From positions 1-42,727 of the IMG/VR virus record IMGVR_UViG_3300005288_000008: DNA of 42,727 nucleotides; one strand, given 5' to 3'. Both the position numbers and the translations under genes were made by a program. Below are positions 2,848-35,515 of the stretch, in pieces. The notes beneath the pieces were generated by a model. That model did no database searches. It saw only the letters and a list, made by a program, of their open reading frames with translations, and had not been told where the DNA came from. The stretch is from a virus. Position 1 is the first letter of the stretch; the number at the start of each line of letters is the position of its first letter.

Positions 2848-4025
2848 CAGACCACCTCGCTTACAGTGATGTTCGCCACGTCGATTTCAAACTTTGCGCC
2901 AGGATCGGGCGACAAGCTGCCGTCAGTGAAGGTGATGTTATCATCACTGATCTTCATGAGCGTCAAAATGAAGTCGTCACCAGCGGTGTAAGCTGGGCAG
3001 TACAAGGCCGACGCCTCTAGAGGTGTGCCGATGTAGAACTTGTAGGCGGCAATTTTCTGCTTGAGTAGCGCGATATCGACAGGTACAAGCGGGTTTCTGC
3101 GAGTAGCCGTGACCGTGACGTAAATCGGAACCATGACTGGCCGGTCAAAGCGACGGATCTGGTAAACAACGAAGGTGCTGCCGTCTGGACGAGTCAGGGT
3201 CTCAGGAATGTTCGCCTCGATTGCACCTTTGATGCCGGCCCCGCCAGTCTTCTGGAAAAGCAGCACCTGCATGATGTCATCAATGGTTCCGCCCTCGACT
3301 ACCGGCCAGATGCTATGCGCGTCCAGGTCGCTGATCGGGTCGTAAACATCGGAATCATTGTCGTAAACGCGAGCATCTGTCACGCCGGCAGTGTTCAGCA
3401 AGCGCGCAGCCAATGAGTTGGTCGTAGAAAACGCCGGATTCTCAAGGCTGAGGTTGCGCTTCTGGACGAACTCTTCGTCGGTCTCTTCGTCCTTGCCTGG
3501 CTCGGCGTCAACCGCAGCCGTGAAGCCCGTTACGCCGAGGACTACCGTAACTGGCGTGAATACAGCGCCTGCCAAGCCAGTTACCGAGCCGAAGTCAGTC
3601 GCCTGAAAGGTAATCGCAGACACGCCAATCGGCAGAATTACCGGCGCCGGCAGTTCCCAGAGCTGGCCAAGATCATCAGATATTTGATATCCGGTAGGCA
3701 GTGTCAGAATACGAGTCGTAACGACCGATAGATCCCAGAACGACCGAGTCGCAGGGCGCGGGAATACACCGGAGAGTTTAGCGATTTTCGCCTGGAAGAT
3801 GCCGCGTGCGAAGTCCGGGTCGAAGTTGTTGGCGATCCAAAGCCCGAACGCCTGCATGTCGGCTCGAGACTTGGCCTCAATTGCCACACGCTGACCATCA
3901 GGGCTTTCCTGATTGAGATTGATGTCGACGCCATAGATCGCTTGATAGCCCGCCACAAGCTCAGCAAAGATCTCATCAAAGCTCTGGATCGTTATGCCGC
4001 TGGCGTCAATCGTCGGGCCTGCCAT
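2847..4025 (-). CDS. Baseplate J-like wedge protein (392 aa)
   Basis: ORF track. Size and position follow a gp25/W-like gene, with start/stop overlaps to both neighbours. Typical myovirus baseplate order. Confidence 0.65.
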   Translation of the reverse strand: MAGPTIDASGITIQSFDEIFAELVAGYQAIYGVDINLNQESPDGQRVAIEAKSRADMQAFGLWIANNFDPDFARGIFQAKIAKLSGVFPRPATRSFWDLSVVTTRILTLPTGYQISDDLGQLWELPAPVILPIGVSAITFQATDFGSVTGLAGAVFTPVTVVLGVTGFTAAVDAEPGKDEETDEEFVQKRNLSLENPAFSTTNSLAARLLNTAGVTDARVYDNDSDVYDPISDLDAHSIWPVVEGGTIDDIMQVLLFQKTGGAGIKGAIEANIPETLTRPDGSTFVVYQIRRFDRPVMVPIYVTVTATRRNPLVPVDIALLKQKIAAYKFYIGTPLEASALYCPAYTAGDDFILTLMKISDDNITFTDGSLSPDPGAKFEIDVANITVSEVV

Positions 4026-4378
4026 CAGATGGTTATCTCTTCGTTGAATTCGTCGTCAAAAATCGTGCCAAACGCAAGCATTATAGTTGCATTGCGAGTG
4101 CTTGTCTTGACCTCAATTTCCAGTTTGGAGATGGTGGTAACTCCGTCAGTAGACAGGGTTACCCGCTCGACGGCGCGAAGTATTTCTTCCTTTGTATCTC
4201 GGCGCCCGAGCAGGTCGATCCAGTCGATATTAGCGTCAACATCAAGGAAAAAATCAGTGCGGAATGATTTTAGGCGCGTGACAACGTTCTGGCGGATTGC
4301 GTCGCCACGAGAAATGTAGACGGAAAGTCCTCGGCCAAACCGCCAATCACCATCTTCATCAAGTCCTGATACGCGCAT
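4025..4378 (-). CDS. Small baseplate wedge protein (gp25/GpW-like by size and position)
   Basis: ORF track. 117 aa, directly upstream of the J-like gene with an overlapping stop/start. Confidence 0.5.
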   Translation of the reverse strand: MRVSGLDEDGDWRFGRGLSVYISRGDAIRQNVVTRLKSFRTDFFLDVDANIDWIDLLGRRDTKEEILRAVERVTLSTDGVTTISKLEIEVKTSTRNATIMLAFGTIFDDEFNEEITI

Positions 4379-20915: not shown

Positions 20916-22165
20916 GGTTGCAGTCCGGCAGTCAGATCATCCGCCGCAGACTCTTCCTCTTCAGGCTTGAACAGATCAGCCCATGCATCCTTCTTGATCA
21001 CGTCATGCTCTATCAGATAGGCGCGGTAGTCCTCACCAAGGTCGTTCAGCTTGACGGCGTTGTCGATCACCTTGGTTTCGAAATCCATCCGCTCGGCAGC
21101 GGTGCCGCCCTGGTTCTCTTTGAAGCACACACCATCAATACCGTAGGCGTGGCAAAGCTCGGTGATAGGGTCGAGCAGATAATCGAACTGCAGACCTTCA
21201 ACCATGTCCTGAAACGATTGCCGCTCTTGATTTCCTGTGCTGTTCAGGCCTTGGACGGACTCGCCAACCAGCATCGGAACCGGAATCGAAGTCACTAATG
21301 CAAGTCGGCGGATGGTGATGTTGTCGACAGCATCCAGGTTGGTCAGGGTTTGGGCGATGGATATCACGTCATCTTCGCCGTCAATTAGACCATCACCATA
21401 AATCCCGCGAATCTCCGCAAGCCTGGCGTAATACTGGATCAGGTAGTCATCATCGCCGCAACGCACGGCATCGGCGAAACCCTTGATCTTGTGAAACAGA
21501 GTCGAGTTCTTTTCGAGAATGGTTCCGGATGCCCGCTCAACAATGCCATCGTTGATTAGTTGCGTATGGATCATTTCGAACTCAGAGATGCCGCCGTACT
21601 TATAGTTGGGCAGGTCAAGCTCTGGCGGCAGATAGTACGTGAAGTCGATCACTCGCGACCAGTGAAAGGACTTGCCGCGCACGTTGTAATACTTCGGCTT
21701 CTGGTAGCGCTCATCATTGAGGTCAATGCTGACTTCCATGGCCGTTACCATGTCGCCGCTGAACACGTCGAGCTTTGTCTTGGATGGATCAACCGGTTCG
21801 GTTCGCGGCTTGGACAGGTCAGCGCCACGCTCATTCAGCAGAATGATGCCGCGACCGAACCCGATCATAAACTTGGCGGCCTTCTTGACGGCACGCTGCA
21901 GTCTCAGGTCGTATTTGTCTTTGTCCTTGTCACTATCAAACTGCAGAGTCTCGTTGAGCGCGTAACCGGTTTTGATGGTGACGATCTTGGCGCCGAGACC
22001 AGTCTTGAAGATGGCGCGTAGCTGTGTGTCATCCAGGCGAGTTGATGTGATGATGTTGATCGCCACAGCAGACCGGCGATTGGCCAGCCCATTGACGATG
22101 TTCGCCATGCCATCACGAAACCCGCGTTGCTTGCCACGACCACCGCCGCGCTTCTTGTTGCTCAT
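20912..22165 (-). CDS. Portal protein (417 aa, DUF1073-like)
   Basis: ORF track. Immediately downstream of terL with a 4-nt overlap. Basic N-terminus followed by the typical portal size. Confidence 0.75.
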   Translation of the reverse strand: MSNKKRGGGRGKQRGFRDGMANIVNGLANRRSAVAINIITSTRLDDTQLRAIFKTGLGAKIVTIKTGYALNETLQFDSDKDKDKYDLRLQRAVKKAAKFMIGFGRGIILLNERGADLSKPRTEPVDPSKTKLDVFSGDMVTAMEVSIDLNDERYQKPKYYNVRGKSFHWSRVIDFTYYLPPELDLPNYKYGGISEFEMIHTQLINDGIVERASGTILEKNSTLFHKIKGFADAVRCGDDDYLIQYYARLAEIRGIYGDGLIDGEDDVISIAQTLTNLDAVDNITIRRLALVTSIPVPMLVGESVQGLNSTGNQERQSFQDMVEGLQFDYLLDPITELCHAYGIDGVCFKENQGGTAAERMDFETKVIDNAVKLNDLGEDYRAYLIEHDVIKKDAWADLFKPEEEESAADDLTAGLQP

Positions 22166-23598
22166 AGCATGCTTCTCCAGTCTCGCTTGACAGGGCTGAG
22201 GATCGCGCCGATGGCGTCCATCGTTGGGTCAATTTGGTCGTCGTGCGCGCCTTTCGGGAAGGCGGCGAACTCTGACAGGTAATCGGATAGCCACGGCGCA
22301 TCTTCTGGCAGCAGCACATTGCCTGATTGTATCAGCGGAATGGAGTCCATGGCTCGCGTGATTTTGTCTGTCGAACGCTGGATACCGACGACAGGGATGC
22401 CCTTGCGCGCAAGGGACTGGATAAGACCGGTGCCACTTGACTTGTCCTCGGGATTCATCGACCGCAACGTGCCGTTGCTGATGGCCTTGTGCTTGTTCCA
22501 AAAAGCTTCGGCCTGGACAAGCAGCTCTGGAGCTTCCCACTTGCCGCGGACTTGATCAAGCATGACAGCCTGGCCATCCCACGATTCGCCCCAACATTGG
22601 AAGACGGAATAGTCATTATGCTCTTTCGTCTTCTGCGCGGTATCCGCAAACACGGCTCGCCACTTGAGCTTTGGCGGTACACCCTTCCAATATTTGAAGC
22701 CGTCCGTCTTGAACATGTTGCCGCCGAGCGCGACGGGCGACTGCTGATACATGGCCGACCAGAAGTAGTCGGACATGATCGCTTTCGTTTCGAGCAGCTT
22801 GTCGAGCGGATGCAGGTCAGGAACCAACGCACCTTTACGACGGTTGGAATCGTAACCTTTCTCGCCTGGCAAGTTGACCGCGACGAACTTGAGGTGTTTG
22901 GCCTTGGTGTTGATCTTCAGGATGCGGCCTGACAGGTCGTCAGTCGCCCAGCTGGTGGCCATGATGATCTGGCCGCTGTTCTTGCTGAGGCGGGTCAGGA
23001 AGGTCGTGATATACCAGTTCCAGATGCCGTCCTTGATCGTCTCGCTCAATGCCTCCTGGGCGTTCTTGATAGGGTCATCGATCAGGCCGATATCCAACCG
23101 CTTACCAGTGAGCGGGCCGCCGACGCCCTGGCCAACGTATCGACCTTTCCTCCCAACGATCTCAAACACGTCGCTGTTGCGCTTGGCTTCAACGTCGACA
23201 GTTACGGCACGCTTGGCGCTCAGCGAGGCATTCGGGAACAGCCGGTGGTATTCAGGGCTCAGCATGATCCGCTGAACGTCGCGGTTCATATCGGTTGCGA
23301 GGTCTTTGGAGTAGCTGAGGCCGCCGATGGATAAGTCAGGAGCCTGGCCGAACAGGAATGCAGGCGCGTACCGACTGACGATATCCGACTTGCCGTGTTG
23401 TGGTGGCGCCTGAACAACCAACACCGGACGCAAGCCAGCCTGCTGGTCAATGAAGAACTGATCGAGCGCCACGCACAACTCAATGGAGAATTCGCTGACG
23501 ATGTATTCAGGATTGATGTACAGGATGAAGTCTAGAAGGCCCCTTCGAGCCTTCCTACGCTTAAGCAGCTCTTGGGCTGCCAGTTGTACTGGTGTCAT
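22162..23598 (-). CDS. terL: Terminase large subunit
   Basis: ORF track. Walker A-like VVQAPPQHGKSD. C-terminal nuclease-type motifs (...ADTAQK...HNDYSV... and ...AHDDQID). Sits between the small terminase and the portal. Confidence 0.85.
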   Translation of the reverse strand: MTPVQLAAQELLKRRKARRGLLDFILYINPEYIVSEFSIELCVALDQFFIDQQAGLRPVLVVQAPPQHGKSDIVSRYAPAFLFGQAPDLSIGGLSYSKDLATDMNRDVQRIMLSPEYHRLFPNASLSAKRAVTVDVEAKRNSDVFEIVGRKGRYVGQGVGGPLTGKRLDIGLIDDPIKNAQEALSETIKDGIWNWYITTFLTRLSKNSGQIIMATSWATDDLSGRILKINTKAKHLKFVAVNLPGEKGYDSNRRKGALVPDLHPLDKLLETKAIMSDYFWSAMYQQSPVALGGNMFKTDGFKYWKGVPPKLKWRAVFADTAQKTKEHNDYSVFQCWGESWDGQAVMLDQVRGKWEAPELLVQAEAFWNKHKAISNGTLRSMNPEDKSSGTGLIQSLARKGIPVVGIQRSTDKITRAMDSIPLIQSGNVLLPEDAPWLSDYLSEFAAFPKGAHDDQIDPTMDAIGAILSPVKRDWRSML

Positions 23599-24218
23599 TC
23601 GTCTTTCGCTGGAGCGCCAGCAATCAGGGCCATCAGCTGGTCATCAGAAAGCTCACTGACATCCTTGGTGAGGATTGGTCCGCCGCCAGGGCCTGAGATC
23701 TCATGCTTGCTGGCCGACTCCCAGCCACCCATCTTGGCGAGTTGAGCGATGGCAGCCACCTTGGAGTGCTGCTTGATCTTCGGGCCGTTCTTGCCGACTT
23801 CCAGCTCGGAGATAATCATTAGCTTATCAGGGTCATTCGCCTGAAGCTCTTCGTCAATCGTCCAGGCGGTCTGATGCACGTCGTCGCCTGTCTCGGCATT
23901 CTGGCCGACGTGGACGGTCTTGAATTTGATGATGTCGGTCAGGTTTCCGCGACCGAGCCGGGTGAGGATTTTCATGGCCTCTTCGCGGGTCATAATTGCA
24001 TCAGAAATCGCTTGCAATTTCATGGAATCCATGAACGCTTTCACCTTCGGATTATTCATGATCTCCGAGGCAGATGTATCCGCAGCGGTATCACTCTTGG
24101 CTGATCCCTCGGCAGCGTAATAAGCCTGACGCTGAGTCATGCCAGCCAAGACGTTGGTGGCGATCCTCTGCTGCAACGATGTCAGGTTATCGAAAAGAAT
24201 CAGCTGCTCAGGAGTCAT
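23595..24218 (-). CDS. terS: Terminase small subunit (Terminase_2-like HTH N-terminus)
   Basis: ORF track. LTSLQQRIATNVLAGMTQRQAYYAAEGSAKSDTAADTSASEIMNNPKVKAFMD matches the small-terminase N-terminal pattern. 4-nt overlap with terL. Confidence 0.7.
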   Translation of the reverse strand: MTPEQLILFDNLTSLQQRIATNVLAGMTQRQAYYAAEGSAKSDTAADTSASEIMNNPKVKAFMDSMKLQAISDAIMTREEAMKILTRLGRGNLTDIIKFKTVHVGQNAETGDDVHQTAWTIDEELQANDPDKLMIISELEVGKNGPKIKQHSKVAAIAQLAKMGGWESASKHEISGPGGGPILTKDVSELSDDQLMALIAGAPAKDE

Positions 24219-24275: not shown

Positions 24276-24314
24276 TGAAAAAGCCCGCAGTCGTATTAGG
24301 GCTGCGGGCTTTTA
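24276..24314 (-). terminator. Bidirectional intrinsic terminator (stem AGCCCGCAG / CTGCGGGCT) upstream of terS
   Basis: Minus strand reads AAAAGCCCGCAGCCCTAATACGACTGCGGGCTTTTTC; the plus strand also ends in TTTT. Separates the tRNA unit from terS. Confidence 0.65.
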
Positions 24315-24839: not shown

Positions 24840-24916
24840 TGGCGCGAATGAAGGGTCTCGAACCCTCGGCCTCTTGCGTGACAGGCAAGCGCTCTAACCA
24901 TCTGAGCTACATCCGC
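24840..24916 (-). tRNA. trnD: tRNA-Asp (anticodon GTC), CCA encoded
   Basis: Manual cloverleaf of GCGGATG-TA-GCTC-AGATGGTTA-GAGC-G-CTTGC-CTGTCAC-GCAAG-AGGCC-GAGGG-TTCGAGA-CCCTT-CATTCGC-G-CCA. 7-bp acceptor stem, loop CT-GTC-AC. Confidence 0.85.
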
Positions 24917-24930
24917 GTTTATTGTGTCGA

Positions 24931-25007
24931 TCAACCGAGGAGGATTTGAACCGCCCACTTTGCAGGTCTCTACATCGTACCTGGATCCCGTACCTTTGGG
25001 CCGGTTG
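24931..25007 (-). ncRNA. Aberrant tRNA-like element (acceptor stem + GGTTCAAATCC T-loop, non-canonical D arm and 11-nt 'anticodon' loop)
   Basis: Minus strand reads CAACCGG...CAGGT-ACGATGTAGAG-ACCTG...GGCGG-TTCAAAT-CCTCC-TCGGTTG-A. One C.U mismatch in the T stem. About 4 nt longer than a standard tRNA. 14 nt upstream of tRNA-Asp and just downstream of promoter P3. Confidence 0.4.
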
Positions 25008-25021
25008 ATCGCCATGCAGCA

Positions 25022-25050
25022 ATAATCGCTCACAACCAAAACTATGTCAA
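25022..25050 (-). promoter_or_regulatory. Promoter cassette P3: TTGACA-TAGTTTTGGTTGTGAGC-GATTAT, drives the tRNA unit
   Basis: -35 at 25045-25050 and -10 at 25022-25027, 17-bp spacer. The tRNA-like element starts about 12-15 nt downstream. Confidence 0.6.
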
Positions 25051-25135
25051 CACCCTGTCGAAAATTATTTTGCATATCCAGGCTTCGATCTATGCCGTTT
25101 TGTAAATCCTGACTTTTGGGTAAGTAAATGCATCT

Positions 25136-25409
25136 GAGTCTGTTGAGTCTAATTTGAGTCTACTCATTAGACTCAGGTCAAGGCCACGCCCCATAAGGGC
25201 TGGAGGCCATTTGAGTCTATTGAGTCTGTTTTTTCGGTTGCGCGCATTTTCAGAAAATCGGCCAAGGTTGACATCTGGTTAAAAAATGATCAGAAAAAGT
25301 GTTTTTTAAAAAAATTAGACTCAACAGACTCAAACCACCTGTAAGCCACGTATTACGTGGCCTGGAGTTGAGTCTAATCGTTAGACTCAGACCAGACTCA
25401 AATAGACTC
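25136..25409. repeat. Iteron array: 12 copies of (T)TGAGTCT(A), 6 direct and 6 inverted, including two palindromic pairs
   Basis: GAGTCT at 25136, 25145, 25156, 25213, 25222 and 25370. AGACTC at 25169, 25317, 25326, 25383, 25394 and 25404. Palindromes TGAGTCTA-N5-TAGACTCA (25155-25175) and TGAGTCTAA-N3-TTAGACTCA (25369-25389). Neighbour spacing is 9-11 bp. Confidence 0.85.
25278..25318. other. AT-rich core (candidate DNA unwinding element) in the middle of the iteron array
   Basis: ggttaaaaaatgatcagaaaaagtgttttttaaaaaaattag. Flanked by direct iterons on the left and inverted iterons on the right. Confidence 0.5.
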
Positions 25410-25473
25410 AGACCGTCATTTCCGCTCAAATATCTCAAAACATCTCAAACGAAACCAAACGTTGTTAAACAGT

Positions 25474-25502
25474 TTGACTCTCAAAACAACTCAAAATATA
25501 CT
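25474..25502 (+). promoter_or_regulatory. Sigma70-consensus-like early promoter TTGACT-N17-TATACT
   Basis: -35 at 25474-25479 and -10 at 25497-25502. The spacer contains two CTCAAA half-iterons. First plus-strand ORF starts at 25538. Confidence 0.65.
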
Positions 25503-25537
25503 CACCCCACGTTTTGACAGAGAAGGAGTGGCCAGAC

Positions 25538-25750
25538 ATGCCAATCGAGAAGGGCGTTTTCCCAATTCCTAAACGCGGAAAATTCGATTTTGACAGTTGG
25601 GAGGTGGGCGACAGCGACACCTATGACACGATGGAGGAGGTAGAGAGTGCGCAAAATGCCGGCAATGCATGGGCTAAGCGTCGGGGCAATGGCGCGAAAT
25701 TCAGCCGCAAGATGATGGATAATGGTTATCGTCTGTGGCGGGTGGCGTGA
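25538..25750 (+). CDS. Small early protein (70 aa)
   Basis: ORF-track frame 25514-25750. ATG 25538 is preferred: GAAGGAG lies upstream, and the TTG at 25514 would sit about 5 nt from the predicted transcript start. Confidence 0.5.
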   Translation: MPIEKGVFPIPKRGKFDFDSWEVGDSDTYDTMEEVESAQNAGNAWAKRRGNGAKFSRKMMDNGYRLWRVA

Positions 25751-27363
25751 TGACCGATCATGAAGAAAGAGTGGTAGTCCTATTAGATGTCGGCGGCATC
25801 GATATAACTTCCGCGCCTCAACTCGAAGTGCTGCCAATCGATAAATACCTGGACGCAATGCCAGACGAAGATGATTTCGAATTCACCGAGTTTGATATTG
25901 GCGTCATGCCTGCCCAGCCAATTCCACATAAACAGAAAGAGGTTACCGCTCAACAGGGGAAAGCTGCGGCGCCAACTCCTTATAAAAGGAAGACTTTTGA
26001 AAAGAAGTTGCCAGAATCCGAAATGTTGGAAACTTTTATTCAGTTGCCTGATTCGGTGATGGACACGGTTATTGGTCGACTCGCTCGGGTTATCTCTGAG
26101 TGCGTCGAGTTCCCTGAGGCGAGTACGTTTCTTTCGCTGCTGGGTTCTGCAAGTGCAGCGGTTGCCGCGAATTACGCTGTCCAGTACCGCACCGGATCGC
26201 CGATCACTACAGGCCTTTATGTGATCGTTGAGCAGCCGCCAGCCACGCAAAAGAGTTACATCCTGGGCATGGGGATGAACCCGTATTCCATGGCGATGGG
26301 TGAGCACAACAAGCGTATCAAGTCGAGGATCCGTGAGGTTATCGAGCGCGCCTCAAAGGAGGATGCTGTTGATATGCCGCGCTTCGGATTTGTGGTGGCA
26401 ACGGATGCGACATCGGCGGCGATGGACAAGCACCTGGCAGAATGCTCGGAGGGTCGATTTGTGATTGCTTCCGCTGAGCAGTCGGCTTTGATCTCGCTCT
26501 TCCCCGAGGGCAATAGCTTTGCCAGTACCAACGAGCTGATCCTGAAGGGTTACGCTGGTGAGTATGTGGCCGGCATGCGAGGTGGTCGGTCGGCTTTCTC
26601 TGGCATGGCCAACGGCAGCGTTGTACTGATCGCCCAATCGAACACCAGTCGCCGAGTGCTGAAGGCTTCGAACGGTTCCGGCATGGCTGAGCGATTCATG
26701 TTCATGGCCGAGCCAAGCAATCTCGGCGGACGGCATTTCGAAGGCGGATTCCCGACCAACGAAGAGCGTCGACCCTTTGAATCAGCGGTACGCGGATGCA
26801 TTGCCGAGTATTCGAAAAAGGTGCTGTCAGGAGAAGGCGTCATTCTCGACCCGGAAAACCTCGTTCAGTTGCGGGCCAGTGCGCACGGCTACCAGATGAT
26901 CAAGCAATCAAGAAAGGAAATGGAGCCACGCCTGGGTGAGCTGAAGGATAGCGGCGACATGGTTCTCCTATCCTGGCTAGGAAAGTTCGAGACGCATGCA
27001 CTCAAAGTGGCCTCAGTGCTACACGTTTTTGAATGCCTGGGCAATGGCGTATCGGTTCCAGAGATCATCCCTGACAAGACGCTGGATGCCGCAATGGAAT
27101 TCGTCGAGCTGATGAGTGACCACATGGAGAAGCTGCTGCACGATGCCGGCGAGTCCGGCAACGAAGCCGAGGAAGAGGCAGTAATCCTTACGATGGATGG
27201 CCGTAAGCTTTCGACGCGGACGCTCGTTCAGCGATTGCGCAACAAGAAGCCCTTCAGTGCCATGGGCAAGGCTGGCTACAAGGCAGCCGAGAATCGAGTA
27301 GCTAAAATGCTTCAATCCGGCATATTGGTTGTCGGTACAGACGGGAGCTTATCGGTCGTATGA
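25750..27363 (+). CDS. DUF3987-like replication initiator/helicase candidate (about 537 aa)
   Basis: ORF-track frame. ATG 25750 overlaps the upstream TGA. A central P-loop-like stretch YVIVEQPPATQKSYILG. Size and position next to the iteron array fit P4-alpha/DUF3987-type proteins. Confidence 0.55.
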   Translation: MTDHEERVVVLLDVGGIDITSAPQLEVLPIDKYLDAMPDEDDFEFTEFDIGVMPAQPIPHKQKEVTAQQGKAAAPTPYKRKTFEKKLPESEMLETFIQLPDSVMDTVIGRLARVISECVEFPEASTFLSLLGSASAAVAANYAVQYRTGSPITTGLYVIVEQPPATQKSYILGMGMNPYSMAMGEHNKRIKSRIREVIERASKEDAVDMPRFGFVVATDATSAAMDKHLAECSEGRFVIASAEQSALISLFPEGNSFASTNELILKGYAGEYVAGMRGGRSAFSGMANGSVVLIAQSNTSRRVLKASNGSGMAERFMFMAEPSNLGGRHFEGGFPTNEERRPFESAVRGCIAEYSKKVLSGEGVILDPENLVQLRASAHGYQMIKQSRKEMEPRLGELKDSGDMVLLSWLGKFETHALKVASVLHVFECLGNGVSVPEIIPDKTLDAAMEFVELMSDHMEKLLHDAGESGNEAEEEAVILTMDGRKLSTRTLVQRLRNKKPFSAMGKAGYKAAENRVAKMLQSGILVVGTDGSLSVV

Positions 27364-27704
27364 ATCTTCAGGAAGCCATCTATCAGCAATACGGTGTTCG
27401 GGTTCCGCTCGGCATCGCTGACGGCCGGCACCTGACATTCAAGATCGACCAGTTGCGAAATGGTTTTGTGTTGCGCCTGGGTGTATGCGCTTGCTTCGGC
27501 TCGATCATCGACGGTGAGTCCATCATCTTCGATGGGGAGCGGTATTGGGAGCGCAAGGTTGAGCACAAAGAGAACAAAGAAATACGCCATGAATGGCTCA
27601 TCTGGGAAGGCGCCAGATCAGCATTGGAGCGTGGCGAAAGATTGAGTCGTGCAGATAGTGAGCGATTGGCGCTTGCTGTGCAGCGGCTTGAAGCTTGGTT
27701 ATGA
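27360..27704 (+). CDS. Hypothetical early protein (114 aa)
   Basis: ORF track. ATGA overlap with the upstream gene. Confidence 0.55.
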   Translation: MNLQEAIYQQYGVRVPLGIADGRHLTFKIDQLRNGFVLRLGVCACFGSIIDGESIIFDGERYWERKVEHKENKEIRHEWLIWEGARSALERGERLSRADSERLALAVQRLEAWL

Positions 27705-29938: not shown

Positions 29939-30153
29939 ACAAATCACACGATATCTCGGAAGGTATGCAGCATTGTGGCGGTGAAAACTGCCAAGAGGAT
30001 CTACGTCCCGAAGAACAATGTCCGTTTGATGAGGAAAAAGAAATAGAGTCTTGCCACTTGGCTTTTTCTAATGATCGGAACATGAAAGCTTCCGATTGGA
30101 CTGTTTTCAGAGCTGCTTGGCTAGCTTGTGCAAGATTGAGGGTTCAACCATGA
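29935..30153 (+). CDS. Hypothetical Cys-containing protein (72 aa from GTG 29935)
   Basis: ORF-track frame 29920-30153. GTG 29935 overlaps the upstream TGA. Confidence 0.4.
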   Translation: MNKSHDISEGMQHCGGENCQEDLRPEEQCPFDEEKEIESCHLAFSNDRNMKASDWTVFRAAWLACARLRVQP

Positions 30154-30893
30154 GCAAGATTCTTATCGGCTATTCGGCGTGTCCGTTGACGCGCCAAGCC
30201 TTTGAAGCTCAAGGTCATGAGGCTTGGACCTGCGACCTTCTGCCGGCGCGTGGAGATCAGTCACGTCACATTCAGTGCGATATCTGGGAAGTTGCGACCG
30301 ACCCATCTTGGGATTTTGGCGTATTCCATCCGATGTGCACCTACATGAACGTCGCCTCTGCCTGGGCGTTGAAAGATCCCGACTTCGAGCGTTACCCAGA
30401 CAAAGGCGGCTACCATCAACGCATTAAGCCGGGGACGCTGGTCGGTCATGATCGCCGAGCGGCTCAGGCTGAAAGCTTTGAAAACTTCCGCAGACTGGAG
30501 AAGTTGAAGTACCCGAGAGTGATCGAGAACCCAGCGCCGTCATCGCTTAGCACCAACGTGCGCAAGCCTGACCAGATCATCCACCCATATCAGTTTGGTG
30601 ATGACGCCAGCAAGGGCACCGGCCACTGGCTGGCCGCGGGTGTTCCGCTGCTTAAGCATACGGGATATGTCGAGCCGCGGCTGGTGTGTGAGAACAGGCA
30701 CACCTTTGAATACGGTGAGACTCGGTGCCCTGAATGCGGCTCTCAAAAATACTTGCCGCGCTGGGCCAACCAGACCGACTCCGGCCAGAATCGTCTGTCC
30801 CCAGGTGAAGATCGTTGGCTTGACAGATCTGAGACGTGGCCGGGGATCGCGGCAGCACTTGGTTACCAGTACGGAAGGTGGCTCAACTCATGA
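30150..30893 (+). CDS. Compact DNA (cytosine-5) methyltransferase-like protein with inserted zinc ribbon (247 aa)
   Basis: ORF-track frame. ATG 30150 with GAGGG upstream. FHPMCTYM (PC-type catalytic motif IV), RVIENPAPSSL (ENV-type motif VI) and CENRHTFEYGETRCPECG. No clear FxGxG SAM motif seen. Confidence 0.5.
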   Translation: MSKILIGYSACPLTRQAFEAQGHEAWTCDLLPARGDQSRHIQCDIWEVATDPSWDFGVFHPMCTYMNVASAWALKDPDFERYPDKGGYHQRIKPGTLVGHDRRAAQAESFENFRRLEKLKYPRVIENPAPSSLSTNVRKPDQIIHPYQFGDDASKGTGHWLAAGVPLLKHTGYVEPRLVCENRHTFEYGETRCPECGSQKYLPRWANQTDSGQNRLSPGEDRWLDRSETWPGIAAALGYQYGRWLNS

Positions 30894-34612: not shown

Positions 34613-35515
34613 ATGGCCTTCACTCTTCACAACATCGCTACCGATAAAGAAAACGCCACGGCCAAGCGTGCCGACTCGATCAAGGCACAGCTCAGCAAAA
34701 TCAAAATCGTCAACGGTTTCAATGAGCGCGACTTCCAACGCGAAGACGTGCGCCTGCATATCGCATCAATCGTTTCCTCGCTGATCGCTGGCGAGCCAAT
34801 CCCCGCGCTGGTTGTCTGGACGAATCCAGAAACCGGCGACATCGAGCTGGTTGATGGCGAATGCCGCTACTGGGCCTACACCGATTTCGCTGCGGAGTAT
34901 CCGGACAAGTTCGACGGCTATGTCAGCGTGGTTCCGTACCAAGGCACTCCAGCTCAGCGCAAGGCCATGGTTGCCAAGAGCAACAGCCAATTACCGCTTG
35001 ATCCAGTCCAGCGTGGCCGCGTTTATCTGTCGCTGCGTGATGAGCATGGCATGAGTCGCCAGGATATTGCTGCTGAGATGGGCAAGTCGTTGGCGCATGT
35101 TGATCAGCATTTGCTGTTGGCCAGTGGCGGTGAAGAGGTTCATGCAGCCGTTGGCGCTGGCGTTATTTCCGCAACCGAAGCCGTCAAGCTGGTGCGCGAT
35201 CATGGCGCCGATGCACCTGCTGAACTGGAGCGCCGCAAAGAGGCTGCCAAGGAAATCGGCAAGGACAAGGTGACCGCGAAGGTTGCAGCGCCGAAAGCGC
35301 CAAGTCGGCCGAAAGTGGATATGGTGGTTTCGGCTGCCGTCGTGCTTGTAAAACAATTGAGCGCGTCGACAATTGAGCTTTGCGATGATCCCGAGCCTAC
35401 TTTTGTAAACGTCAGTTCGCACGCCCTGGCTGACCTGATCATGGCCGTTCGCGAAATGCAGCAGGCCGGCAAACCGCTGGATGCTGATAAGCAAATGGAA
35501 TTGATCGGGGAATAA
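34613..35515 (+). CDS. ParB/Srx N-terminal domain protein with HTH (300 aa)
   Basis: ORF track. ...IELVDGECRYWAY... is a ParB-box-like motif. MSRQDIAAEMGKSLAHVDQHL is an HTH. Confidence 0.65.
   Translation: MAFTLHNIATDKENATAKRADSIKAQLSKIKIVNGFNERDFQREDVRLHIASIVSSLIAGEPIPALVVWTNPETGDIELVDGECRYWAYTDFAAEYPDKFDGYVSVVPYQGTPAQRKAMVAKSNSQLPLDPVQRGRVYLSLRDEHGMSRQDIAAEMGKSLAHVDQHLLLASGGEEVHAAVGAGVISATEAVKLVRDHGADAPAELERRKEAAKEIGKDKVTAKVAAPKAPSRPKVDMVVSAAVVLVKQLSASTIELCDDPEPTFVNVSSHALADLIMAVREMQQAGKPLDADKQMELIGE

Follow-up and report, generated by a model that had tools for sequence, protein, structure and literature searches.

The virus genome recorded in IMG/VR as IMGVR_UViG_3300005288_000008 (positions 1 to 42,727, all of which was analysed and is referred to here as the window) carries an array of twelve TGAGTCT heptamers at 25135-25410, upstream of the gene for a DUF3987 helicase (25750-27363, + strand). 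Based on comparison with related phages and mobile elements, we propose that this array is probably the replication origin of the phage and the cis-acting partner of the adjacent helicase. An earlier note on this DNA had read the array as an iteron origin with a DNA-unwinding element next to a DUF3987-like gene. The gene is indeed there, and the origin reading gains support by inference from the conserved layout of the array, from a heptamer that co-varies with the helicase, from a module break at the array edge, from related islands in which the array stands 3' of the helicase gene, and from a stability minimum at the array centre. Comparative genomics shows the array to be strongly conserved and, in our interpretation, a probable origin-type nucleoprotein assembly site.

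Anatomy of the heptamer array

With 42.7 kb and 55% G+C, the window looks like the whole or nearly the whole genome of a tailed phage; it comes from a 2011 soil metagenome. The genes for virion structure, packaging and lysis occupy the - strand. The array sits in a 620-bp gap separating this leftward gene block from the rightward early operon, which begins at 25538. The repeat unit is Y-TGAGTCT-R, and its twelve copies, six per strand, make up a block of about 280 bp. The shorter word GAGTCT occurs 26 times in the window, with 12 of these copies (6 on the + strand and 6 on the - strand) located within 25136-25409. All twelve extend to TGAGTCT; the preceding pyrimidine is T in nine and C in three, and the following purine is A in eight and G in four. 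Outside the array there are five copies of TGAGTCT in 42.7 kb, with about 5 expected; the number expected in 274 bp is about 0.03. No second TGAGTCT cluster was found in the window, the remaining copies being scattered at chance level.

The sites follow the layout [+ + + -]-36 bp-[+ +]-89 bp-[- -]-36 bp-[+ - - -]. The dyad axis lies near 25272, and the right half-array is the reverse complement of the left one in layout. The centre-to-centre distances are 9, 11, 14, 43, 9, 96, 9, 43, 14, 11 and 10. The six heptamers of the left half-array (25135-25227) comprise five + copies, TGAGTCT, at 25135-25141, 25144-25150, 25155-25161, 25212-25218 and 25221-25227, and one - copy, AGACTCA, at 25169-25175. 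In the mirroring right half-array (25317-25410), the - copies are located at 25317-25323, 25326-25332, 25383-25389, 25394-25400 and 25404-25410, and the single + copy at 25369-25375. The orientation ratio (+:-) is 5:1 in the left half and 1:5 in the right half. The earlier note had counted 12 copies, 6 direct and 6 inverted, with direct copies prevailing on the left and inverted ones on the right; every position that it listed is correct, and so is the division of orientations. Its spacing of 9-11 bp between neighbours holds for neighbours of the same orientation, but the members of the inverted pairs are 14 bp apart. Two such pairs had also been described as perfect palindromes. Their arms are perfectly inverted, but the spacers between the arms are not palindromic: the first inverted pair has perfect 8-bp arms (TGAGTCTA/TAGACTCA) around a 5-nt spacer, and the second has perfect 9-bp arms (TGAGTCTAA/TTAGACTCA) around a 3-nt spacer.

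The A+T-rich centre and the 36-bp spacer elements

The central region of the array (25228-25316) contains the dyad axis and includes an A+T tract, the proposed DNA-unwinding element. This tract, placed earlier at 25278-25318 as 40 bp of A/T, is 83% A+T and does hold the stability minimum of the window. Among all 40-mers of the window, the segment 25279-25318 is the least stable, with a nearest-neighbour free energy (dG) of -41.3 compared to a mean of -57.9 (standard deviation 3.6), which puts it 4.6 standard deviations from the window mean. In each of 12 phage-type relatives, too, the stability minimum within ±1.5 kb lies in the array centre. In the two closest relatives, designated L004 and L023, the identity of 25271-25320 is 100% and 96%, respectively, which is above that of the flanking coding DNA.

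Each half-array is interrupted by a spacer element of 36 bp. The left element, GGTCAAGGCCACGCCCCATAAGGGCTGGAGGCCATT, is located at 25176-25211 between site 4 (-) and site 5 (+), and the right element is located at 25333-25368 and includes GCCACGT-ATT-ACGTGGC at 25345-25361. The spacer length is exactly 36 bp in most loci. A quasi-palindromic consensus with a CACGTG-like core, CTNNAG-(GCCACG or CCCTTA)-N5-CGTGGC-CTNNAG, is found for these elements in phages as well as in islands, and with any heptamer class. The 7-bp palindrome at 25345-25361, taken earlier for a hairpin, is present in the window, but a hairpin is not a conserved feature, perfect stems of at least 5 bp being found in 28% of 32 spacer elements from relatives versus 11% in shuffles. 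Because perfect stems are only weakly enriched, it is the sequence of the spacer elements and their spacing that are conserved. A conserved surface of the helicase and a host protein are both candidates for the reader of these elements.

A fixed layout with a changing heptamer

A megablast search of 24900-26900 against GenBank phages gave no match. A search with the helicase protein found Pseudomonas phage Amjad_SA (44% identical) and about 140 metagenomic proteins. The loci compared through alignment of the helicase consist of 27 from IMG/VR, 30 from metagenomes, three Logan/JGI contigs and one contig of a bacterial metagenome-assembled genome (MAG); a scan of genome contigs gave a single locus, L076. 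In L004 and L023, with helicases 94% and 84% identical to that of the window, all twelve sites are kept as TGAGTCT, six in each half-array, and the array DNA is 84-100% identical, above the adjoining coding sequence.

About 40 loci keep the layout and the spacings almost base for base, with a heptamer that differs by lineage. By comparison, at least 11 heptamer classes follow the divergence of the helicase. The heptamer is TGAGTAC in L073, with a helicase 75% identical to that of the window, TGAGCTC in L005 and L034 (~70%), TGAGTGC in L006/L007 (59%), TGAGGGG, partly with TGTGCTA, in L009-L013 (~49%), TGCGGGC in L014-L016 (47-48%) and TGCGTGC in L040 (~51%). The classes beginning with TGTG are TGTGCCC in L017 and L026 (~44%), TGTGCTC in L008, L018-L029 and Amjad_SA (42-52%) and TGTGTAC in L076 (47%, a partial match). 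TTTGCTC is found in L042, L047 and L053 (49-54%, partial match). The combination of a fixed syntax and a changing word indicates that the reader of the heptamers is a fast-co-evolving protein of the element itself and not a host factor.

The diversity of heptamers also bears on whether the array might be a cluster of sites for GANTC methylation of the CcrM/HinfI type, since TGAGTCT contains GAGTC. There are 13 GANTC sites in 25136-25480, and the window encodes a methyltransferase-like protein (phrog_757). Most heptamer classes, among them TGTGCTC, TGAGGGG and TGCGGGC, have no GANTC, and the window shows no depletion of GANTC (172 observed versus 163 expected). The methyltransferase-like open reading frame (ORF), at 30096-30893, is without a Pfam match; among the compared loci it is found only in L012, 91% identical, where the array is of the TGAGGGG class (L004 and L023 end earlier), and it looks like a sporadic cargo gene. 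A GANTC cluster as the primary explanation is contradicted by the heptamers of the relatives and by the lack of GANTC depletion, and we consider it extremely improbable.

Only the helicase tracks the heptamer

Among the neighbouring proteins compared, only the helicase tracks the heptamer. Its identity to the window protein is highest in L004 and L023, both of which have TGAGTCT arrays, and does not exceed 82% elsewhere; at 82%, in L075, TGAGTCT is already combined with TGAGTAC. The packaging genes behave differently. In L024, the portal protein (98%), the large terminase subunit TerL (92%), the small subunit TerS (93%, with residues 1-67 100% identical) and a ParB-like protein (93%) are close to those of the window, but the helicase is only 42% identical and the array heptamer is TGTGCTC. 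L004 and L023 share the heptamer and the helicase of the window, with packaging genes that are less similar.

The earlier note had offered two alternatives to an origin, a pac site and a centromere, and both can be weighed against these discordant neighbours. If the array were a pac site, TerS would recognise repeats on both sides of a cleavage region. The genes for TerL (22162-23598) and TerS (23595-24218), both on the - strand, encode a terminase of the Terminase_2/Terminase_6 type, and terS is about 900 bp away from the array. The pac site of phage P1 likewise consists of hexamer arrays on both sides of the cleavage region, to which the two-sided repeats bear some resemblance. The near-identical TerS of L024 is found with a different heptamer, which contradicts recognition of the array by TerS. 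Furthermore, the terminase next to the array in L073 and L074 is of another type, that of Sf6, the arrays of island-type loci have no terminase nearby at all, and the homology break described below places the array in the replication module rather than in the packaging module. A pac site is hence very unlikely in our judgement.

The second alternative, a centromere-like or KorB-like array, would be bound by the ParB-like protein encoded at 34613-35515. This protein has a ParB helix-turn-helix (HTH) and KorB-like domains, and the quasi-palindromic spacer elements with their CACGTG-like core would be in keeping with such a role. Its homolog in L024 and L061 is 93% identical, with two substitutions in the HTH region, and the heptamer there is TGTGCTC. 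The homolog in L063 is 90% identical, with an identical HTH region, and the array is absent. Island arrays are found without ParB, and no ParA was seen among the ORFs scanned. ParB may bind the 36-bp spacer elements, which do not depend on the heptamer, in phages, but this cannot account for the same elements in islands. Given that a near-identical ParB occurs with a different heptamer, we judge the centromere reading very unlikely as well.

The two other products of the early module do not track the heptamer. The DUF7303 protein (70 aa, 25538-25750, + strand, PF23978), encoded by the first gene of the module, is 52-55% identical in L004 and L023, where the heptamer is the same, and L004 and L005, which have different heptamers, share an identical central helix in this protein. 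For the product of gene 27360-27704 (gp27360), identity is 92% in L004 and only 54% in L023, despite the same heptamer, and reaches 64% in the TGTGCTC phages L021 and L024. DUF7303 was rejected as the heptamer reader: its variation does not follow that of the heptamer, and island-type loci have the array without it.

A swappable replication module and two gene orders

DNA homology of the window to L024, L014 and L022 spans the packaging and tRNA region, ends at 25129-25131, which is four to six bases ahead of the first heptamer, and resumes near 27557. The position of this break at the array edge implies that the array is part of a swappable cassette, which comprises the array, the early promoter P_early, the DUF7303 gene, the helicase gene and most of gene 27360-27704. 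A conserved box, CCTGACTTTTGGGTAAGTAAAT (25108-25129), marks the junction of the packaging/tRNA module and the replication module. It is found in most relatives, with any heptamer, and is absent from L073/L074, which have the Sf6-type terminase. The box may serve recombination as a linker, or may belong to the left-hand module as one of its sites.

A replacement of the whole cassette can be seen in L063. The flanks of this locus are like those of the window (TerL 96%, TerS 80%, tRNA-Asp and ParB 90%), but the DUF3987 helicase is replaced by a helicase of the AAA_25 (RepA/DnaB-like) type and the array by unrelated GGATGCA(AA) repeats. The replaced region, L063:1990-4308, has about ten of these repeats, a DUF7303-like ORF (2397-2645), a 121-aa ORF and the AAA_25 helicase (2983-4308). 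It is noted that DUF7303 accompanies two unrelated helicase types, DUF3987 in the window and AAA_25 in L063.

The strongest single result for the association of array and helicase comes from island-type loci: L047:989-5651, L042:1430-3075, L053:4001-5600 and L076:3001-4590. The order in these loci is the helicase gene, a terminator and then the array directly 3', as in the rep-ori order of Staphylococcus aureus pathogenicity islands (SaPI) and phage-inducible chromosomal islands (PICI). The island array has the syntax [+ + + -]-36-[+ +]...[- -]-36-[+ - -], and the helicases belong to the same family, with a different N-terminus. L047 has an AlpA-like gene and a serine recombinase (resolvase), and L076 is a contig of a Pseudohongiellaceae MAG. 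No TerS, DUF7303, gp27360 or ParB was found near the arrays of L047, L042, L053 and L076. The helicase gene is the only constant partner of the array, and it is so in two gene orders. The island-like elements may be satellites with a replicon type common to phages.

The CTCAAA repeats and the early promoter

Two sigma-70-type promoters identified by promoter scan flank the intergenic gap. P_left, TTGACA-N17-GATTAT, is located on the - strand at 25050-25022. P_early, the TTGACT-N17-TATACT promoter named in the earlier note, is found at 25474-25502 on the + strand with 10 of 12 matches, and transcribes toward the DUF7303 gene, the helicase gene and the rest of the rightward operon. A TTGAC-type promoter is found in the equivalent place in relatives. 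Between the array and the operon, in 25425-25495, are five CTCAAA repeats on the + strand, all at the positions proposed before (25425, 25434, 25444, 25480 and 25490), and a degenerate copy, ACCAAA, at 25454 on the same strand. The copies at 25480 and 25490 fall within the spacer of P_early.

Related pentamers are found between the array and the start codon in other lineages. There are 3-9 copies of CTCAA in 11 of 12 loci with TGAG heptamers, and four copies of CGCAA in all three loci with TGCG heptamers. The pentamers are on the + strand only, which is the orientation of the right-hand heptamers, and in both groups the kind of pentamer changes together with the heptamer's first four bases; an exception is L007, which has CACAA although its heptamer begins with TGAG. 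This co-variation supports a common reader for heptamers and pentamers, and with it the initiator autoregulation that had been suggested for this DNA. The suggestion does not extend to the family as a whole, because the promoter repeats of the TGTG lineages are unrelated to their heptamers (GGATAGA in Amjad_SA, CTAAGAC or CTCTAAGGG elsewhere). Autoregulation is likely in the lineage of the window and not general. The promoter segment is the fastest-evolving part of the cassette, with only 32-53% identity between the window and L004/L023.

The location of the array between two strong sigma-70-type promoters also raises the possibility that it serves transcriptional control only. It would then be an operator array between P_left and P_early, bound by the winged helix of the helicase or by DUF7303 so as to set the timing of early and late expression, and replication would start elsewhere. 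The related repeats that reach into P_early and co-vary with the heptamer are consistent with such a role, as is the fast evolution of the segment with the promoter and the small gene. None of the 12 main sites overlaps P_left or P_early, though. The island arrays follow the helicase gene and its terminator, and that of L047 faces convergent genes. An arrangement as a dyad around the genome's least stable DNA speaks for an origin rather than an operator, and DUF7303, one of the two proposed binders, fails to follow the heptamer and does not occur in the islands. We regard control of transcription alone as rather unlikely, although less so than any of the three readings above. Even taken together, the operator, pac, ParB and methylation readings remain improbable next to an origin, and the remainder of the doubt belongs to explanations not thought of.

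The helicase and a proposed mechanism of initiation

The product of 25750-27363 matches Pfam DUF3987 with an E-value of 7.7e-31 and is assigned as a DNA helicase by PHROG. DUF3987 proteins belong to helicase superfamily 6 (SF6), are distant relatives of MCM and carry a winged helix-turn-helix at the C-terminus (Kazlauskas et al., PMC4889955); a PriCT-DUF3987 protein has been shown to be an ATP-dependent helicase (PMC11724360). Both studies treat the DUF3987 helicase and not its origin. In an AlphaFold2 (AF2) model of the window protein, with a predicted local distance difference test (pLDDT) score of 77, residues 1-93 are disordered, residues 94-465 form a confident ATPase core, and residues 470-537 form a C-terminal winged helix (H-H-H-beta-beta). 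The top 50 matches of the model in the PDB, according to Foldseek, are all MCM, and its best viral fold matches are DUF3987 helicases and primase-helicase fusions. No polymerase, primase, or O-like or Rep-like (Rep_3) initiator was recognised among the early genes of the window.

It is also observed that the N-terminal region of the helicase, encoded at 25750-26030, keeps the motif IDISxxPxF..APV..Y.DVMPDEDDFE across the phage-type family, followed by a variable K/R/P-rich linker. This region is replaced in island-type helicases and in some fusions with a primase zinc finger (PF01807). The motif may be a docking motif for a protein of the host replisome.

We propose that the helicase acts as its own initiator, with its C-terminal winged-helix domains recognising the Y-TGAGTCT-R heptamers. 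One helicase hexamer would assemble on each six-site half-array, and the two complexes would flank and melt the A+T-rich centre at 25279-25318, so that the helicases are loaded for bidirectional unwinding. The six sites per half would correspond to the six winged helices of a ring, and the ~93 bp per half to approximately the circumference of a 100-Å ring. DNA synthesis would be carried out by the host replisome, because the window has no gene recognisable as one for a polymerase or primase. Through the CTCAA repeats, which have the first bases of the heptamer, the same protein could damp its own operon once it has accumulated.

Several observations weigh against this reading of the array as the origin of the DUF3987 helicase. 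In two island loci, the local stability minimum is not at the array centre. Alignment of the helicases by heptamer class shows class-specific variation in the winged helix but no convincing residue-to-base rule, and the TGTGCTC phages L008, L018, L025 and L003 differ considerably in winged-helix sequence. A comparison of the helicase with PDB chains, including Rep1 and PriRep5 of SaPI (both of superfamily 3, SF3), with single sequence and with profile, gave no meaningful match. The paper on Amjad_SA, the only cultured relative, mentions no array, and the genome termini are unresolved there (PMC12968170). To these may be added the unrelated promoter repeats of the TGTG lineages mentioned above. 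Several arrays also mix two heptamers, which a single rigid specificity does not explain. The mixed array L075:880-1170 has six TGAGTCT and six TGAGTAC sites, with a helicase 82% identical to that of the window; another is found at L074:875-1150. TGTGCTA is interleaved with TGAGGGG in L012:9326-9590 (L012/13), and in L014:9430-9695 (L014-16) TGCGGGC is found at all six + sites and TACGTGC-type words at the - sites. The mixed heptamers occupy defined, roughly symmetric positions. These arrays could be intermediates of a specificity change, or could reflect two reading surfaces; either the reader tolerates variation outside the TGNG core or several surfaces read the sites.

Finally, physical linkage between array and helicase gene would lead one to expect some co-inheritance without any function. 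Since linkage alone may produce co-variation, the argument relies on the discordant neighbours and on the two gene orders. It goes beyond linkage because neighbours on both sides of the cassette are discordant, because the same partnership is kept in two gene orders, and because helicase and array are replaced together in L063.

A broader reading, which we put forward as tentative and on balance doubtful, is that helicase and array form a portable two-part replicon cassette with a code that diversifies in steps, in which loader-free loading of an MCM-like double hexamer is written in the DNA. Lytic phages, among which at least two types of terminase are represented, may exchange the cassette with integrative islands that resemble satellites. 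The recognition code may change through mixed-heptamer intermediates such as L075. The fixed 6 + 6 syntax, with its two spacer elements that do not depend on the heptamer, may reflect the binding of one winged helix to each site, with the double hexamer wrapping ~93 bp per ring before the centre is melted.

Comparison with known replication origins

A search of the literature (full text, on the name of the helicase family and on Amjad_SA) found no description of such an array or origin. The closest known system is that of SaPI. The SaPI Rep protein is a self-loading initiator-helicase with a C-terminal winged-helix domain that reads 6-12 short iterons directly downstream of rep. The SaPI origin has an AT-rich middle with half of the iterons on each side in opposite orientations, and one hexamer is thought to load per side (PMC9371898). 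As in SaPI, and especially SaPIbov1 with its SF6-type Rep, the system in the window combines a helicase that has a C-terminal winged helix with a block of short repeats. The repeats are divided around an AT-rich centre in opposite directions, and their sequence is specific to the helicase variant. The array is directly 3' of the helicase gene in SaPI as in the island-type relatives. In the window, the array lies on the 5' side of the operon instead, 340 bp ahead of the helicase start, and is merged with the early promoter. Moreover, the window belongs to a lytic-type Gram-negative phage, its repeats are 7 bp (9 bp with flanks) rather than 5-6 bp, its 12-site syntax is fixed, and it has two conserved 36-bp spacer elements. 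The DUF3987 helicase has no detectable sequence similarity to Rep1/PriRep5. On the present comparison, the array is probably a SaPI-like type of origin, found in Pseudomonas-type phages of a group not described before and in islands related to them.

The alpha protein of phage P4 is a helicase with a C-terminal winged-helix origin-binding domain that reads short repeats in both orientations. It also carries a primase, its helicase is of the SF3 type, and P4 needs a second, distant repeat block (crr). The system proposed for the window is similar to that of P4 in having helicase and winged helix in one protein and short repeats in both orientations, and differs from it in that the window has no second TGAGTCT cluster.

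In the origins of SV40 and polyomavirus, bound by large T, and of papillomavirus, bound by E1, inverted pentamer or hexamer sites are combined with an AT tract and a palindrome, and two head-to-head hexameric AAA+ helicases melt the origin. These are origins of eukaryotic viruses with SF3 helicases and a separate origin-binding domain rather than a C-terminal winged helix; the core origin is much smaller, ~64 bp, and has its AT tract on one side and not in the middle. The lambda origin with its O protein and the Rep-iteron systems of plasmids resemble the window in having initiator sites beside an AT-rich unwinding region, and in an initiator-iteron specificity that diversifies among related mosaic phages. 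Their iterons are 17-22 bp, mostly direct and on one side of the AT tract, whereas those of the window are 7 bp and in both orientations. In addition, a dedicated initiator recruits the host DnaB in those systems, whereas the phage of the window brings its own helicase.

DUF3987 helicases are widespread in phages and mobile elements, and the array family would supply an origin for them, one whose syntax is unusually explicit. The matched helicase-heptamer variants, at least 11 in number, form a natural series for how a winged helix on an MCM-like ring picks its DNA. The series may reveal the way in which two hexamers are positioned when there is no loader, and how cross-talk between the replicons of phages and satellite-like islands is avoided. 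The array would also mark the origin for annotation of this phage group, including the cultured Pseudomonas phage Amjad_SA, and the array and helicase together, at ~2.3 kb, make up a compact candidate replicon for hosts of the Pseudomonas type.

Other features around the array

The DUF7303 protein may be an accessory or regulatory protein. PF23978 matches 7 of 16 members of its family; a profile search against PDB gave no meaningful match, and its model gave no significant fold match (best E 0.8).

To the left of the array, a gene for tRNA-Asp(GTC) is located on the - strand at 24840-24916, between P_left and a strong terminator-like hairpin, AAAAGCCCGCAG...CTGCGGGCTTTT (24279-24313), just upstream of terS. 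Because this hairpin precedes terS, P_left seems to drive a short tRNA unit and not the late operon. The tRNA cargo differs among relatives. L024 has tRNA-Ser and tRNA-Asp, and L063, on inspection by eye, has a near-identical tRNA-Asp sequence in the same place; no tRNA was found in the scanned loci L004, L023, L014, L022, L005, L007 and L018, nor in L003, the locus of Amjad_SA. Directly upstream of tRNA-Asp, at 24917-25015 on the - strand, is a tRNA-like stretch with a T-loop-like motif, GGTTCAAATCC, and an acceptor-like stem of 10 bp, CGATCAACCG/CGGTTGATCG. ARAGORN calls no tRNA and Rfam no family in this stretch, which may be a decayed or unusual tRNA.

The sign of the GC skew switches near 25 kb, an observation given no weight because the gene orientation flips there too. 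GATC is found 330 times in the whole window, compared to ~163 expected from base composition. The ParB-like protein is 90-93% conserved between genomes that are otherwise heavily mosaic.

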